Of a stretch of DNA of 64,000 bases, positions 1 to 36,684 are shown in pieces. Origin of the DNA: Eubacteriales bacterium (lineage in GTDB: Bacteria > Bacillota > Clostridia > Peptostreptococcales > Anaerovoracaceae); contig JAQXJR010000035.1 in NCBI GenBank assembly GCA_029009055.1, positions 6,196 through 70,195 of the forward strand. Reading direction: 5' to 3'. The translations under genes were made by a program, and so were the position numbers. The notes below the pieces were generated by a model. It was given only the letters and a program-made list of their open reading frames with translations. It was not told the DNA's origin and ran no database searches. Each line of letters starts with the position of its first letter. Position 1 is the stretch's first letter.

Positions 1-224
1 CATCTGGTGACTTCATCCTTCTCGTAAGGAACTGTTGGGTTCTCTACGAGATCCTTGATAGTCAGATTGGCCAGGACGATCTTAGCGGCTACCCTTTCTG
101 TTTCCCCTGAAGCAGCTATGCCCTGCAATCTGTCTGCTGATTTAGGCTCGTTAGCCTTAGCCAGAACGTCTTTCACGTCCTTGAAGGAGTAAACTTCACC
201 ATTCAGCTTCGCCTTTAGTATCAT
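1..224 (-). CDS. eutB: Ethanolamine ammonia-lyase large subunit, 5' part only (runs off the window)
   Basis: Not in the ORF track. Manual translation from ATG at 224 gives MILKAKLNGEVYSFKDVKDVLAKANEPKSADRLQGIAASGETERVAAKIVLANLTIKDLVENPTVPYEKDEVTR, the characteristic EutB N-terminus. RBS GAAAGAGGTGG lies upstream. Confidence 0.93.
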   Translation of the reverse strand, partial: MILKAKLNGEVYSFKDVKDVLAKANEPKSADRLQGIAASGETERVAAKIVLANLTIKDLVENPTVPYEKDEVTR

Positions 225-239
225 GTTTCCACCTCTTTC

Positions 240-303
240 AAAAAAATTAGCTCATGAAAACCTGAGCATCTGACTTATCATCAGATCCCCTGTTTCATGA
301 GCT
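240..303 (-). terminator. Intrinsic terminator in the eutB leader
   Basis: Perfect 11-bp stem AGCTCATGAAA (249-259) / TTTCATGAGCT (293-303) with an inner ATCTGA/TCAGAT stem, followed on the minus strand by AATTTTTTT just before the eutB RBS. Confidence 0.75.
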
Positions 304-340
304 TCGTCACTTCGTGCCCCTAAGGGCTTAGAAACAATTA

Positions 341-934
341 TTATTTATCTCTGAGCAGGAATATGTCATAGGCTAGACCGGCTGCGTCGCCTGGATCTAG
401 ACCGTATTTCCCGCTTACAGACTTTAAGTATTCCGCGGCGTCATCTTCTGTCATTCTCTTCTCTTCCATGAGAAGGCTCACCGCGTATTTCATATTTCTC
501 GCGCCCGAGAATTTCTTCTCTGTCGCGTCTAACTCTTCGTCCAGCTCCTTAAGTCTTCTTTTCCTCGCGAAACTGAATTTAAGTTTAGCCAGGAGGTCTC
601 CCTTCCTGATCGGACTGGAAAGGTATATGTCAGCCGCGCCTTTGCTCTCTTCACGAGAAGCTGACCTGCCATCGTCCTTTATGACTCCGGTCGTCATATA
701 CCTCTCTTCTCTGGAAAAGTAATCCAGAAGCTTCACTCTGCGTTCGCTGTCGAGGACACCCCCCAGTATCACTCCATCCGGATGCTCATATTCTACCGCC
801 AATACCAGGTCCATAACGTCTTCGAAACAACTGGTCTCGATATCGCCGCTATCTAATGTATTTTCGACCTCTTCCCGGGCTTTATCATCGTTCACATATA
901 TGAATACCCGCTGCGGATCGTCATTTCTTCCCAT
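341..934 (-). CDS. Pseudo-receiver plus ANTAR-like domain protein
   Basis: Receiver-like fold with PDGVILGG where PDLVILD is expected (no phospho-Asp), then a coiled coil and a C-terminal ANTAR-like segment KYAVSLLMEEKRMTEDDAAEYLK. Confidence 0.7.
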   Translation of the reverse strand: MGRNDDPQRVFIYVNDDKAREEVENTLDSGDIETSCFEDVMDLVLAVEYEHPDGVILGGVLDSERRVKLLDYFSREERYMTTGVIKDDGRSASREESKGAADIYLSSPIRKGDLLAKLKFSFARKRRLKELDEELDATEKKFSGARNMKYAVSLLMEEKRMTEDDAAEYLKSVSGKYGLDPGDAAGLAYDIFLLRDK

Positions 935-956
935 ATTTCTCTCTATCCATTTCAGG

Positions 957-2300
957 CTATTTTATCAAATCGAATGTCTCAGTCGTCCCTTTCGGACCGG
1001 AGCTCACTTCGAACTCTCCTCCTAGCCTGTCCTTTATCATATCCCTGATTATGCCCAGACCGTATCCCTCGGCAGGACTATCAGCATCGAACCCCCGCCC
1101 GTCATCACTGTAAACTATGGTAGAAGATATCAGATCGTCTTTAAGTTCTATCTTTATTCTGCCTTCATTTCTTCCTTCGAAGGCATGCTTAAGAGAGTTG
1201 CAAATAAGTTCATATATGACTGTTAGTACTACGTTACATACGTCAGTCGTCACCATTATATCGTCACCGGAGATGTCTACGGTCACATTTTTACTGGTGA
1301 GATCCAGGGATATCCTACTTAAGGTATATTCCAAAGTGGATTTAAGTTCCAGCTCGCTGCCATTTCTAAGTTTCAGCTCGTTTATAGACTGGAGCATCCT
1401 GATCCTGTCTGCCATATCTCTATAAGCCTGGGAATCCTCACTCTCAGCCCTGTCCATAGCATAGTTGGATAAGAACATGAGCCAGTCCTTAGCCGAGTGC
1501 CTCTCTTCGTGGATAAGAAGGTCCAGATCCTTTATTTTCTGTTCCCTCTTCATCTTCTCCGTTATATCATCCATTATGACCGCGTATTTCACATTCTCCA
1601 TGCCGAGCCTTACGACTCTGCCTTCGAAAGAATAGCCGTTCATATTGAATGTTATCTTATCGTCCGGAACATCCGCTATGACGTTCTCTATGCCCATGCC
1701 GAGGACACGCCCTACATATCCCGCTACTTTCAATAAATTATCAGAATACTTATTGGAATAGCATATCTTATCCTGATTATTCACTAAGAGCAGGGCTTCG
1801 TCGAACCCATTAAGAAGCTTTTCTATATAAGCTGGGAGCGACACTTCTTTAACTCCCGCTCTGTCATTACCGAAATACTCAGCCTCGGTATCATTAATGA
1901 GGTGCTCATATATGAGAACAGCCACTACCTTATCCATAAACTTTATTGGAAATACCTGCTGCATCATGGCTTTGCCGGAGAAGACCTCGGATCCGGACAC
2001 ATTTCTCGTAGCTAGACCCGTATTGAAAGTTCTCTCTACAGCCGGCTCGTTCTCCGTGAACATGATGTCCCCGTAGAGCGGCTTATCGTATATGGTCCCC
2101 TTCGCTTCAGGATAGGCCTCGCCCACAATTATCATGGACTTCCCCGTAACGGTCATGCAGTCTATATACACGTTACACTGCTCGTTTTCGGCGAATTTCT
2201 GGAGATTCTTAAGGTAAGGATATATAGCCTCTATTTCCTCGTCGCTGAGCGCCGTGTATTTACGGCACAGCTCCTCACATTCACGGATCTCGTTAGCCAT
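957..2300 (-). CDS. eutW: EutW/PdtaS-type sensor histidine kinase (H_kinase_N GAF + PAS-like + HisKA_2 + HATPase)
   Basis: N-terminus LCRKYTALSDEEIE..NVYIDC is typical of EutW. N-box ELICNSLKHAF, G1 DDGRGF and G2 GYGLGII are present. ATG at 2300 has RBS AGAGGTGG and overlaps the eutV stop. Confidence 0.85.
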   Translation of the reverse strand: MANEIRECEELCRKYTALSDEEIEAIYPYLKNLQKFAENEQCNVYIDCMTVTGKSMIIVGEAYPEAKGTIYDKPLYGDIMFTENEPAVERTFNTGLATRNVSGSEVFSGKAMMQQVFPIKFMDKVVAVLIYEHLINDTEAEYFGNDRAGVKEVSLPAYIEKLLNGFDEALLLVNNQDKICYSNKYSDNLLKVAGYVGRVLGMGIENVIADVPDDKITFNMNGYSFEGRVVRLGMENVKYAVIMDDITEKMKREQKIKDLDLLIHEERHSAKDWLMFLSNYAMDRAESEDSQAYRDMADRIRMLQSINELKLRNGSELELKSTLEYTLSRISLDLTSKNVTVDISGDDIMVTTDVCNVVLTVIYELICNSLKHAFEGRNEGRIKIELKDDLISSTIVYSDDGRGFDADSPAEGYGLGIIRDMIKDRLGGEFEVSSGPKGTTETFDLIK

Positions 2301-2889
2301 TAGGTCCACCTCTGGAAATAATGATTTCCGCCACCTCAGCCATAGACATCTTATGCTTCCTGCTGATCTCTCTCATATTATCGTAAGCCTGGGTCTCGCT
2401 CACAGAATATCTGCTCATAAGCATAAGTTTAGCCTTCTCTATGATTTCGCGGTTCTCAACACGCTTATTAACGTTATCTATCTTCTTACGCATCTCGAAG
2501 AACTCGGCGCTGCTCTTCATGACGCTTTCTATAGTAGGCACCAGGAGATTCTTATCTAAAGGCTTAGTCATGTATCCTGAAGCCCCGGCTTCTATGACTC
2601 TATCCACCGTATCGCTGTCATCGAACGATGTGAGCACTATTACGCACTTAGCCAGGCAGCTGGAAACTATCTTCTCCGTCGCCGCTATCCCGTCCATGAG
2701 CGGCATCTTAATATCCACTATAGCTAAATCCGGCTTAAGCTCTGAACACAGCTTTACCATCTCCAGCCCGTTATGCGCTTCGCCCTCTACTTCATAGCCG
2801 GCCTCTATAAGGCAGTCCTTCAAGTCTCTTAGTAGGAAACGGTCATCATCAGCTATTACAGTTTTAAGTTTAGATTTAGAATTCTTCAT
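2293..2889 (-). CDS. eutV: Response regulator with ANTAR RNA-binding output domain
   Basis: Receiver motifs IADDD, DLAIVDIKMP and YMTKP, plus C-terminal ANTAR REIIEKAKLMLMSRYSVSETQAYDNMREIS. The start was moved to ATG 2889 because the ORF-track start lies inside the leader terminator. Confidence 0.88.
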   Translation of the reverse strand: MKNSKSKLKTVIADDDRFLLRDLKDCLIEAGYEVEGEAHNGLEMVKLCSELKPDLAIVDIKMPLMDGIAATEKIVSSCLAKCVIVLTSFDDSDTVDRVIEAGASGYMTKPLDKNLLVPTIESVMKSSAEFFEMRKKIDNVNKRVENREIIEKAKLMLMSRYSVSETQAYDNMREISRKHKMSMAEVAEIIISRGGPNG

Positions 2890-2906
2890 AAATATTACCG
2901 GATAAC

Positions 2907-2980
2907 AAAAAAGCACACTAAAACATTCCTGTTTAAGTGCACTACGTCGTACAAAAAATGTTCAATTCGGATGCGTCTCC
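2907..2980 (-). promoter_or_regulatory. Antitermination leader of eutV: two small hairpins plus an overlapping terminator
   Basis: Minus strand: GGA-GACGCA-TCC (2969-2980), a 16-nt linker, GTAC-GACGTA-GTGC (2939-2952) overlapping terminator GCACTTAAAC-AGGAAT-GTTTTAGTGTGC-TTTTTT (2907-2940). Confidence 0.7.
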
Positions 2981-2996
2981 TGATTTCGTCTGAAAT

Positions 2997-3025
2997 ATTT
3001 TATCATCTGATACGTTCGTTGTCAA
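2997..3025 (-). promoter_or_regulatory. Sigma-A promoter for the eutVW operon
   Basis: TTGACA-17 bp-TAAAAT with an extended -10 TG. Confidence 0.8.
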
Positions 3026-3242
3026 TTACATGAAAACACACACATCGATTCCGAATCTATAAAAAATGATTCCAATTCTCTATACTCAAATATATAATAA
3101 AAGTTGTTTAATGAATTTCTTTCGAATATTTTATATTTATTTTGCAAAGAAATCCCGGCACATGTGCCCGGGCGGCTGCCCCAGGTGGTAGCAGGCGGTC
3201 TGTGATTTACTGTACTACTAAAACTAACATTTGGTGGATTAT

Positions 3243-4574
3243 ATGAACTTCAAGGCAATAATAAAAAACGTTAATAAATATGGTATATCCGGCACCATCA
3301 GACTTAGAAACGATAAGAAGAGGATCACTGAAATCGTCGATAATTATCGAGCTGATTTTCTGAAAGAGAATGGTGTCAAATCTTTAGATGAGTTAGATAA
3401 GAAAGCTCTTAAAAAATACAGGAAGTCTCTGGAACGTAAATATATGTTCGAGATCCTACCAGCGGAATACGATGAATATAAGGACAGGCCGATCCAGAAT
3501 AAAGTAATAATGATGGAAAACGGCCATGCTCCTTCGCCTAGCCAGTCACACCTGGCTGACGTCATAAGGAAGCAGGGTAAATATAAGGTAGTCATGATGA
3601 GCATGAACCGCCAGGATGTGTCGTTAGAAGAGTATCTGGAAAACGGCAGAAAATTCGTGAGAGAGATAGCGGACGCTAAGGCTGTGTTCCTGTCTACGTC
3701 TAACTTCTTCCTATCCGGCTTCGACCTCAGACCGGAAACGAAGCTCATCCAGCTCTGGCACGGTGTTGGAACTTTTAAGAAAATCGGCTTCAGCACGGTA
3801 AACAGTAAGGGTTTCGGCCTGTCAGAATCTGAGAGAAAGAAAATCGACCTTTACAGGAACTATGACTATGTGACCATTGCTGCTGAATCTCAGCTCCCAA
3901 TATTTGAGGAAGCATTGAGGATACCGGCTTCTTCAGGTAAACTGGCTCCTATAGGGGTATCCCGTACTGACGTTTTCTACGATCAGGAATACATCCAGCA
4001 CACACACGAGAGATTCCTTAAAGCCATGCCACAGATCGAGGGAAAGAAGATCATCCTCTACGCGCCGACATTCCGCGGCCGCACGGCTAAAGCTAAGGCT
4101 CCTGACCGGCTGGATATAGCTAAGATGGCCGAAAGGCTTTCTGACGACTATGTCCTCCTCATAAAACACCACGGTTTGGCTCATAATATACCTGATATAC
4201 CTGAGGAATATAAGGATAAATTCGCTTTCGATGCCAGAGACCATAAGAATTTCGGCATAGAGCGCTGGCTGTCCGAAGCCGACATCCTGATCACCGATTA
4301 CTCTTCCGTCGCCTTCGAGTTCGCCCTGAAGGAGAAACCGATTATCTTCTTCTGCTACGATCTGGAGGAGTACGTGGAAGAGCGCGGCTTATATAACGAT
4401 TTCGAGACATTCGTGCCTGGGCCTGTGGTCAAGACGACAGACGAGATATGCGATTACATAGAGCACATAGACGAGAGATTCGATAAGCAAAGGGTAATAG
4501 ACTTCAAGCGCGACCAGGTCGGAGCCTGCGACGGACACGCTACAGAAAGAACTATAGAATTGATAGAAAAGTAA
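3243..4574 (+). CDS. CDP-glycerol glycerophosphotransferase family protein (TagB/TagF-like)
   Basis: Motifs QLWHGVGTFKKIG, ILYAPTFRG and LITDYSSVAFEF. Confidence 0.85.
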   Translation: MNFKAIIKNVNKYGISGTIRLRNDKKRITEIVDNYRADFLKENGVKSLDELDKKALKKYRKSLERKYMFEILPAEYDEYKDRPIQNKVIMMENGHAPSPSQSHLADVIRKQGKYKVVMMSMNRQDVSLEEYLENGRKFVREIADAKAVFLSTSNFFLSGFDLRPETKLIQLWHGVGTFKKIGFSTVNSKGFGLSESERKKIDLYRNYDYVTIAAESQLPIFEEALRIPASSGKLAPIGVSRTDVFYDQEYIQHTHERFLKAMPQIEGKKIILYAPTFRGRTAKAKAPDRLDIAKMAERLSDDYVLLIKHHGLAHNIPDIPEEYKDKFAFDARDHKNFGIERWLSEADILITDYSSVAFEFALKEKPIIFFCYDLEEYVEERGLYNDFETFVPGPVVKTTDEICDYIEHIDERFDKQRVIDFKRDQVGACDGHATERTIELIEK

Positions 4575-16633: not shown

Positions 16634-16712
16634 AAATTACTCCTTTTCTCATTTAGCAAAGCGTTTCTTTATAGTCATAACTAATATCTCGGCGCCGCCT
16701 CGGGCGCCCCAT

Positions 16713-16761
16713 AAAAAAGCAAAGGCGCTCAGGGAGAAATACCATATCTGCCCTTTGCGCC
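16713..16761 (-). terminator. Intrinsic terminator after the NSS transporter gene
   Basis: Minus strand GGCGCAAAGGG...CCCTGAGCGCC-TTTGCTTTTTT. Confidence 0.6.
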
Positions 16762-35307: not shown

Positions 35308-35424
35308 AAAAACTATTCCTGAAGCCTCTTCAACTCAGTTCATCCAACTCAGTTGGTCCGGGCTTTCCAATCATTCTCTTCATCTAAACAGCCCTGATCC
35401 GGCTGATCAGGCTTCATCGCCCTC

Positions 35425-36684
35425 CTAATCATCCTGATCCAGCTTCAGCACAGCCCTGTACAGCATGTCCGTCCCGTAAGCCGCGTCCTCCCAACTAGTG
35501 TATTCTTCCTTACAATGCCCTATGCCGTTCTTACTCGGAACGAATATCATGGCGACAGGGACTCTCTGGCCTATGGCGTTACTGTCCTGTCCGGCGCCGC
35601 TGTGGAGCTCCTTATGCGAGATTCCACCTTCGTCCCCGCACCTGGCTAATATGTCTCTCAACCTCTTATCGCAGACCACAGAAGGTTTCTTAACTAACGG
35701 CGTGAATACGGTCGTCACCCCATCTATACTGTCAGCGAAATCCTTCACCCTGTCCACGAAGTCGTTTATATGAGCCTGCCTCATGTGCCTTACTTCCAAG
35801 GTCATGGTCACCTTACCCGGAATTATGGTCGCGGCTCCCGGACTCACCCTCAGCATTCCTATGGTCGCTACCAGGTGATCCCCATCATCGCAGGCCGCGT
35901 CGTTCACGAACTGGACGATTTTAGCCGCCGCGACGAGGGCGTCATGCCGCTCCCTCATCCTCGTGGTCCCGGCGTGGTCGCTCTTACCGTTAACGGTTAT
36001 CCTGTACCTGGTTATACCGGCTATACCTGTGACTATGCCGGTCCTGATCTCTTCCTTTTCCAGCCTCGTAGACTGCTCTATATGAAGTTCCAGGTACTCC
36101 CGCCAATCGCTGGTATCTACCTGGCATGAGAGGATATCATCGTATGTGAGCCCGTGTTTATCCAGGACTTTCTGATATATCTTATTAGGTTTTCCGATCA
36201 GGCCCATCATAGCCCGGCTGCCGAACGTCCCGCCGAGAGCGCTTCCTTCCTCACCCTGGATGCCCATGACCAGAAGAGAATGGCGGAGGCGCACGCCCTC
36301 ATCCAGGAGACGCTTTGCTAAACTGAGAGAAGCCGCCACGCCCAGGCATCCATCATAAAGGCCGCCGTTAAGAACAGTGTCGAGATGAGAACCCGTAACG
36401 ATCGTTCCCGCTTCAGGATCAGTCCCCTCTAGCAAAGCCAGCCTGTCACCGACTCTGTCTTTCGTCACGGTCATGCCTAGAGACTCGGCTATCTCCCGAA
36501 ACTCCTCAGCCGCCTCCTCATACTCCGGAGAAAGGGGAAGCCTGGAATACGAACCGTCCTCGGTCTTACCATGCGACCCGATCCGCAAAGTATATTCTTC
36601 TAGTATCTCTGATATGTAGTCTATCGTATCCCGACTTACCGGCCCCTCAGCCGCTAAAGCTTTATTCCTTTCATAACTATCCAT
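35425..36684 (-). CDS. M20 Zn-dependent amidohydrolase (hydantoinase/carbamoylase, allantoate amidohydrolase family)
   Basis: GSHLDTV.NGG.YDG.LG, EEG, ELHIEQ, HAGTT and SGAGQD (Q replaces the usual H). Confidence 0.85.
   Translation of the reverse strand: MDSYERNKALAAEGPVSRDTIDYISEILEEYTLRIGSHGKTEDGSYSRLPLSPEYEEAAEEFREIAESLGMTVTKDRVGDRLALLEGTDPEAGTIVTGSHLDTVLNGGLYDGCLGVAASLSLAKRLLDEGVRLRHSLLVMGIQGEEGSALGGTFGSRAMMGLIGKPNKIYQKVLDKHGLTYDDILSCQVDTSDWREYLELHIEQSTRLEKEEIRTGIVTGIAGITRYRITVNGKSDHAGTTRMRERHDALVAAAKIVQFVNDAACDDGDHLVATIGMLRVSPGAATIIPGKVTMTLEVRHMRQAHINDFVDRVKDFADSIDGVTTVFTPLVKKPSVVCDKRLRDILARCGDEGGISHKELHSGAGQDSNAIGQRVPVAMIFVPSKNGIGHCKEEYTSWEDAAYGTDMLYRAVLKLDQDD

Follow-up and report, generated by a model that had tools for sequence, protein, structure and literature searches.

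The leader upstream of the eutV-like gene in this stretch of a Clostridia-type genome (the window, 64,000 nt in all) is best read as an ANTAR-type transcription attenuator that places the eutV-eutW operon under positive feedback, with the G at position 1 of both hairpin loops (G1) being a tolerated variant; judging from sequence, we give this reading a probability of roughly 78%. An autoregulatory ANTAR target is favored because a leader with two hexaloop hairpins, overlapping a terminator, sits directly upstream of a REC-ANTAR gene in a eut locus. The first-pass annotation of this DNA had described a variant autoregulatory ANTAR target with a new recognition code; the autoregulatory ANTAR leader survives as the most probable account, but the new code does not.

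The eutV-like gene (2293..2889, minus strand, with its ATG at 2889) encodes a 198-aa response regulator with REC and ANTAR domains (Response_reg 1.2e-23, ANTAR 3.6e-15), and among solved structures E. faecalis EutV is its nearest relative (6wsh, 6.3e-42). Its stop is overlapped by a eutW-like gene (957..2309, minus strand) for a sensor histidine kinase with GAF_PdtaS and HATPase_c domains, so that a REC and ANTAR regulator lies beside a PdtaS/EutW-type kinase inside a eut locus, and this eutV-eutW gene order is common to the related loci L082, L084, L087, L088, L086, and L169. Next on the minus strand come a gene for a 197-aa degenerate EutV paralogue (341..934) and the 5' part of eutB, the gene for the ethanolamine ammonia-lyase large subunit (1..224; EutB 3.2e-21), which runs off the end of the window. 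In relatives at 63-65% identity, the gene order is unchanged and EutB and EutC follow, and more distant ones, including Aminipila terrae (48%), lie in full eut/BMC loci, with EutB, EutC, EutA, and BMC shell genes carried by the relatives. This gene context, together with the eut/BMC loci of relatives and E. faecalis EutV as the closest solved relative, justifies the name eutV.

The eutV leader lies wholly on the minus strand. The first-pass annotation had proposed a TTGACA-17-TAAAAT promoter driving a leader of about 100 nt that contains three GACGNA hexamers, two of them hairpin loops 16 nt apart with G at positions 1 and 4, the second overlapping a U-tailed terminator just before eutV, and this anatomy was confirmed at each point. 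The promoter (2997..3025) is of the sigma-70 type and near consensus, matching at 11 of 12 positions, with TTGACA at 3025-3020, a 17-nt spacer, a -10 hexamer at 3002-2997, and the TG of an extended -10 element (TGaTAAAAT). From its position, the transcript is predicted to start near 2991/2990, giving a leader of ~100 nt in which the hexamers are GACGAA (2990-2985), GACGCA (2977-2972), and GACGUA (2948-2943). Between this promoter and an esterase gene, the window carries a TagF-like CDP-glycerol glycerophosphotransferase gene (3231-4574, plus strand) that is missing from L081, a 94%-identical relative, and so was gained or lost recently; at about 3155-3172 there is a perfect palindrome, CCCGGCACATGTGCCGGG.

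The first hexamer is outside any hairpin and forms part of a single-stranded GACGAAA (2984..2990), a putative element at the predicted transcript 5' end. This GACGAAA is conserved and unpaired in four leaders (the window, L081, L082, and L084), and in L087, L170, and L172 its counterpart, GCGAA, pairs as the 5' side of a longer P1 stem. The minimum free energy (MFE) fold of the leader pairs the GACGAAA with the U-tract, a pairing that was rejected as it is not kept in L084. The second and third hexamers are the loops of hairpins P1 and P2. P1, GGA[GACGCA]UCC (2969..2980), has a stem of 3 bp worth -1.5 kcal/mol alone (ViennaRNA), closed by an A-U pair rather than the canonical C-G; P2, UGUAC[GACGUA]GUGCA (2938..2953), a putative antiterminator element, has 4-5 bp (-4.2 kcal/mol, ViennaRNA) and closes with C-G, and the linker between them (2954..2968) is 15-16 nt long. 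The intrinsic terminator (2907..2943) consists of a 13-bp bulged stem (2943-2912) of sequence AGUGCACU-U-AAACA[GGAA]UGUUU-U-AGUGUGCU, with a stability of -12.7 kcal/mol, and a U6 tract (2912-2907); a simple terminator scan missed it because of its two bulges. Five nucleotides of the P2 3' arm (2942-2938) are shared with the terminator 5' arm, and the terminator state of the leader (-16.1 kcal/mol) is more stable than the state with P1 and P2 (-7.8 kcal/mol), whereas the MFE fold of an RNA cut before the terminator 3' arm contains both P1 and P2. The leader thus shows two tandem stem-loops of at least 3 bp, hexaloops with G at position 4 (G4) in both, a linker within ~2-25 nt, and a P2 that is mutually exclusive with an intrinsic terminator, all as in known ANTAR targets; the expected A at loop position 1 (A1) is replaced by G in both loops. 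Between terminator and ATG (2890-2906, minus strand), no recognizable Shine-Dalgarno sequence precedes eutV, while eutB, unlike eutV, is preceded by GAGGUGG; in L082, the eutV ATG is only 6 nt past the U-tract.

From this arrangement, we infer a switch of the following kind. A strong, constitutive-looking promoter would start the ~100-nt leader, and by default the 13-bp terminator (-12.7 kcal/mol) would outcompete the weak P2 (-4.2 kcal/mol), with most transcripts ending at U6 before eutV. Ethanolamine would activate the kinase, leading phosphorylated EutV to dimerize, and the dimer would bind the P1 and P2 hexaloops on the nascent RNA, G4 stacking on the conserved Tyr169. Closed P2 would then sequester AGUGCA of the terminator 5' arm and permit read-through into eutV, eutW, and the paralogue gene, raising the levels of all three products in a positive feedback, while a second attenuator of the same kind would gate eutB.

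Conservation among relatives is consistent with such a switch. Seven distinct orthologous eutV leaders were compared (the window, L081, L082, L084, L087, L170, and L172), and all seven keep the promoter, the (A)GGA[RACGNA]UCC(U) hairpin, P2, and the terminator, the promoter standing at an equal distance in the six relatives. The linker, by comparison, has diverged completely in sequence and measures 12 to 18 nt, and the spacing of the hexamers differs among orthologues. The P1 stem is unchanged across all seven leaders, around a loop that reads GACGCA in the window, L081, L082, and L084, GACGUA in L087, AACGGA in L170, and AACGAA in L172. Compensatory changes occur in the terminator stem of L082/L084, and in the L087/L170/L172 subclade P2 is without a clean 3-bp stem. 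Relatives whose proteins are 94%, 65%, 63%, and about 50% identical keep the arrangement.

Adding the Aminipila-group leaders L086, L169, L171, and L088 gave an eleven-leader clade alignment, with linkers trimmed to 12 nt and hairpins picked by eye, a choice that biases it toward structure. All six stem pairs show compensatory changes in this alignment, all 11 leaders have hexaloops, and the G4 column is invariant; 95.5% of cells are paired compared to 68% in shuffled and 18-45% in slid-partner controls, figures that reflect the hand-picked hairpins. One surplus A in the L088 linker affects a linker column only. The clade itself is rare: only some eleven EutV members turned up among 5.8 billion proteins, and a scan of representative-genome contigs returned only relatives at 40% identity or less, meaning that the species is absent from the representative genomes. 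A metagenome-contig scan with generic receiver-domain motifs returned no member of the clade.

Loop position 1 is where the leader departs from published descriptions. Ramesh et al. (2012; PMC3369931) give A and G as loop positions 1 and 4 in their text, and the first-pass annotation took the G1 loops as a sign of a shifted ANTAR-RNA code. Such a code would require that EutV proteins of the clade have co-evolved with G1...A6 hexaloops and read them differently from A1 loops, for example through an Arg or Lys replacing Met172, and although we consider this unlikely, it has the loop statistics in its favor: G1 loops number 22 of 31 in the clade (with 7 A1 loops and 2 register-ambiguous ones) and all 22 end in A, compared to G1 in 5 of 58 loops among the 29 non-redundant top hits of Ramesh et al. 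(2012; PMC3369931). A P1 closed by a pair other than the canonical C:G is a further point in its favor.

Against a separate code, however, A1 and G1 loops occur side by side in single loci, and one replaces the other at orthologous positions even where the regulators are nearly the same (L087 versus L170/L172; L086 versus L171), such that EutVs nearly identical in their RNA-binding region face both loop types, sometimes in one locus. Beyond the orthologous P1 loops given above, Aminipila-group P1 loops read GUUGAA, GGUGAA, and AUUGAU, and P2 loops read GACGUA in the window, GACGAA in L081, GGCGAA in L082/L084, and AACGGA in the L087/L170/L172 subclade. G1 loops are, moreover, already part of existing ANTAR alignments, an outcome that the first-pass annotation had itself named as refuting its idea: besides the 5 of 58 loops just mentioned, the seed alignment of Ramesh et al. 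(2012; PMC3369931) includes the L. monocytogenes eutA P2, AAGC[GAUGAA]GCUU, and published G1 loops come from Listeria, Alkaliphilus, C. perfringens, and Desulfotomaculum (PMC3369931, Figs S1/S2), even though we found no explicit treatment of G1 loops in the literature searched. Finally, in the crystal structure of Walshe et al. (2022; PMC8934654), G4 stacks on Tyr164 while A1 makes no specific contact with EutV, and those authors suggest that A1 is retained to avoid cross-loop pairing. Because A and G swap in orthologues, G1 occurs in a published alignment, and position 1 is uncontacted by EutV, the claim of a shifted code is not supported, and we read G1, common in the Aminipila-related clade, as a purine variant tolerated in place of the canonical A, not a different recognition code.

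The comparison of RNA-contact residues with E. faecalis EutV that the first-pass annotation had suggested gave a divided answer. Mapped onto the window EutV at an offset of +5, seven contact equivalents are kept (Arg142, Glu146, Lys147, Lys149, Glu160, Tyr164, and Arg168 in E. faecalis numbering), the G4-stacking Tyr164 being Tyr169 in the window protein, while five are changed (Lys143 to Glu, Met172 to Arg, Asn173 to Lys, Arg175 to Lys, and Arg177 to Ser). The Met172 position is Arg, Lys, or Ser and AKL replaces AKG (Leu for Gly152) in all 11 clade EutVs (P0001-P0011), which speaks for a shifted code; against such a code, the residue, which Walshe et al. (2022; PMC8934654) report to be essential for binding, varies outside the clade as well, relatives there having Met, Leu, or Lys. 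From these sequences, the clade appears mildly unusual in being G1-rich and in having an EutV with Arg, Lys, or Ser in place of Met172. The Met172 replacement keeps the co-evolution scenario alive, whereas the mix of A1 and G1 within the clade speaks against a strict switch. We find it improbable that clade EutV reads a distinct loop geometry, protein and RNA having co-varied into a second ANTAR recognition mode. The geometries to consider under that mode may include a G1.A6-closed loop and, for GACGCA and GACGUA, a G1-C5/U5 pseudo-triloop, the latter being the cross-loop pairing against which conservation of A1 has been suggested to guard (PMC8934654). The G1...A6 bias of the clade, the Met172 replacement, and the conserved 5' GACGAAA are the points left over from our analysis.

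The first-pass annotation had also supposed that canonical motif models could miss this leader, and they do, though not through G1. The canonical covariance model used here is a reconstruction based on the 29 published hits, distinct from the file of the original authors; run unfiltered, it gives the eutV leader only 6.8 bits (E=6.3) against the published cut-off of 10 bits, aligning P2 alone, and to the model's P1. The eutB leader is absent from its match list. G1 is not the cause of the miss because A1-bearing orthologues score equally low (L170 at 7.3 bits and L172 at 6.9 bits, with G1-bearing L081 at 8.0 bits); it is due instead to divergence of stems and linker and to the low information content of the motif. 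Rfam likewise gave no family match at either leader, at gathering thresholds over the whole window or at E<=10 over positions 1-3300. Mehta and Ramesh (2021; PMC8164766) reported that focused firmicute models miss divergent targets, and that A1 and G4 conservation in actinobacteria is only slightly above 50%. The eutV leader offers a concrete case of how narrow ANTAR covariance models can miss real targets.

A second attenuator lies upstream of eutB (240..327, minus strand) and consists of a GCCC[UUAG]GGGC hairpin (327-316), a P2, AGU[GACGAA]GCU (311-300), a terminator (303-249), and a U7 tract (246-240). Its P2, AGUGACGAAGCUC, agrees with the AGCAANGRRGCUY motif in 11 of the 13 positions, and P2 loops of eutB leaders read GACGAA in the window, GACGGA in L082/84, AACGGA in L087, GAUGGA in L086, GAUGAA in L171, and GAAGAA in L169. 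The alternative register preferred by RNAfold, GUGA[CGAAGC]UCAU, was rejected, as it is not conserved in L087, L086, and L169. A canonical hexaloop P1 is lacking from this attenuator in the window, L082, L084, L087, L086, L169, and L171; 4-15 nt upstream of P2 there is a GC-rich hairpin, its loop 3-5 nt long except in L087 (12 nt), with a covarying stem (GCCC/GGGC, GUCCGC/GCGGAC, GACCGGG/CCCGGUC, AUUCC/GGAAU). Farther upstream, a GGC[GACGCA]GCC hairpin (380-391, minus strand) is contained in the final paralogue codons, 68 nt from the eutB-leader P2. Its loop is identical to that of the eutV-leader P1, and the hairpin reaches 16.1 bits with the clade model (E=0.14); L087 preserves the stem (GGU[GACGUA]GCC), and an A.C mismatch weakens it in L082/L084. 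This hairpin could represent a remote P1, or it could simply follow from the G-D-A-A codons.

The paralogue itself has a pseudo-receiver and an ANTAR-like C-terminus, and it is conserved in eut loci of the clade, placed after eutW or before eutV, although a word-index homology search with the 197-aa sequence returned one close relative only. In Aminipila terrae CP047591 (L086 9397-9965), its position is called as a 73-aa receiver and an 80-aa weak ANTAR, which suggests a frameshifted or decaying copy. The paralogue could modulate EutV, e.g. through a coiled coil. That it, as one candidate for a factor other than EutV, binds the leader hairpins is a much more doubtful proposition: its conservation and the GACGCA-loop hairpin inside its own coding end would fit, but the paralogue is without the G4-stacking Tyr, in the window lineage it has also lost the phospho-acceptor Asp ("PDGVILGG"), its Pfam ANTAR match is below threshold, and EutV keeps most contact residues.

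Controls within the window bear on whether the hairpins could have arisen by chance. GACGNA is not enriched over the 64 kb (115 found, 109 +/- 11 expected). A stem of at least 3 bp encloses 11 of the GACGNA hexamers, 4 of them in the 3 kb of eut regulatory sequence, and two hairpins with GACGNA loops lie within 60 nt of each other in 0.7% of 300 shuffles. Out of 53 terminator-like hairpins found in the window by a descriptor scan, the eutV leader is the sole one with an overlapping G4 hexaloop hairpin plus an upstream one. The covariance model from orthologous leaders proposed in the first-pass annotation was built from the clade leaders, but yielded no further convincing site over the 64-kb window, its best other match being the 16.1-bit hairpin in the paralogue gene (E=0.14), and over related loci it found nothing besides its own training leaders. 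Two canonical-model matches, at 16702-16730 (plus strand) and 35409-35461 (minus strand) with 12.9 and 11.4 bits (E 0.15-0.39), were judged chance hits and rejected, one being without a hexaloop P1 and the other running across a stop codon upstream of an MntP gene. The latter, GUAC[AGGGCU]GUGC ... GGGC[GAUGAA]GCCU (E=0.39), is probably a chance match; the stop codon that it spans belongs to an M20 peptidase gene, and the MntP gene encodes a manganese exporter.

It is very improbable that there is no protein switch at all, the terminator being a constitutive damper on eutVW and the hairpins or GACGNA repeats incidental or DNA sites for a transcription factor, since the marginal stability of P1 alone and a whole-leader fold no more stable than shuffles (z = -0.6) are set against P1 and P2 kept while the linker diverges, the same loop type in the eutB attenuator, hexamer spacing that varies between orthologues, contrary to phased DNA sites, and the rarity of such a hairpin pair in shuffles.

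The attenuator reading itself has evidence counted against it, namely a P1 of only 3 bp with A-U closing, the 6.8-bit score, Met172 to Arg, the changes at Lys143, Asn173, Arg175, and Arg177, the P2 stem of L087/L170/L172, and the unexplained 5' GACGAAA. On the closing pair, C:G was preferred in NasR SELEX, and eutP induction is reported to be sensitive to the P1 closing-pair sequence. With these reservations, the leader adds to the known EutV attenuators a well-conserved, putatively autoregulatory one from a Clostridia lineage that is poorly sampled. The natural G1/A1 pairs at orthologous positions also make it possible to test why position 1 is usually A though uncontacted, and whether Met172 is truly indispensable.

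Among known systems, the closest are the eut leaders of E. faecalis and L. monocytogenes, which are controlled by EutV/EutW ANTAR antitermination (Fox 2009; Ramesh 2012, PMC3369931; Walshe 2022, PMC8934654). The eutV leader shares with them two short hexaloop hairpins with G4, a linker in the published 2-25 nt range, and a P2 that overlaps an intrinsic terminator, and the regulator, with REC, coiled coil, and ANTAR, is likewise paired with a GAF_PdtaS-type kinase. Listeria, too, has a leader directly upstream of eutV, and as the L. monocytogenes eutV leader is in the seed of Ramesh 2012 (PMC3369931), autoregulatory placement was already known. The eutB-leader P2 of the window (AGUGACGAAGCUC) is similar to theirs in its 11 of 13 AGCAANGRRGCUY positions. 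Unlike in those systems, both eutV-leader loops of the window are G1, P1 closes with A-U, and P2 resembles a canonical P1 (GUAC...GUGC); the window EutV has Arg at Met172 and Leu for Gly152, the locus has an extra degenerate EutV paralogue, and the portion of the locus that the window covers showed neither an AdoCbl riboswitch nor an EutX-like decoy.

The G1...A6 hexaloop has a counterpart in the AAGC[GAUGAA]GCUU P2 of L. monocytogenes eutA and Alkaliphilus metalliredigens (Ramesh 2012, Figs S1/S2), which gates eutA/eutB and corresponds to the GAUGAA, GAUGGA, GAAGAA, and GACGAA loops of clade eutB leaders, although those two species have one G1 loop per pair while both loops of the window eutV leader, like most clade loops, are G1. 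As with actinobacterial ANTAR targets (PMC8164766), real targets escape models made from closely similar firmicute sequences and clade-specific models are needed; the actinobacterial targets, however, are mostly translational and lack terminators, whereas the leader described here has the form of a classic terminator/antiterminator switch in a Clostridia-type genome.
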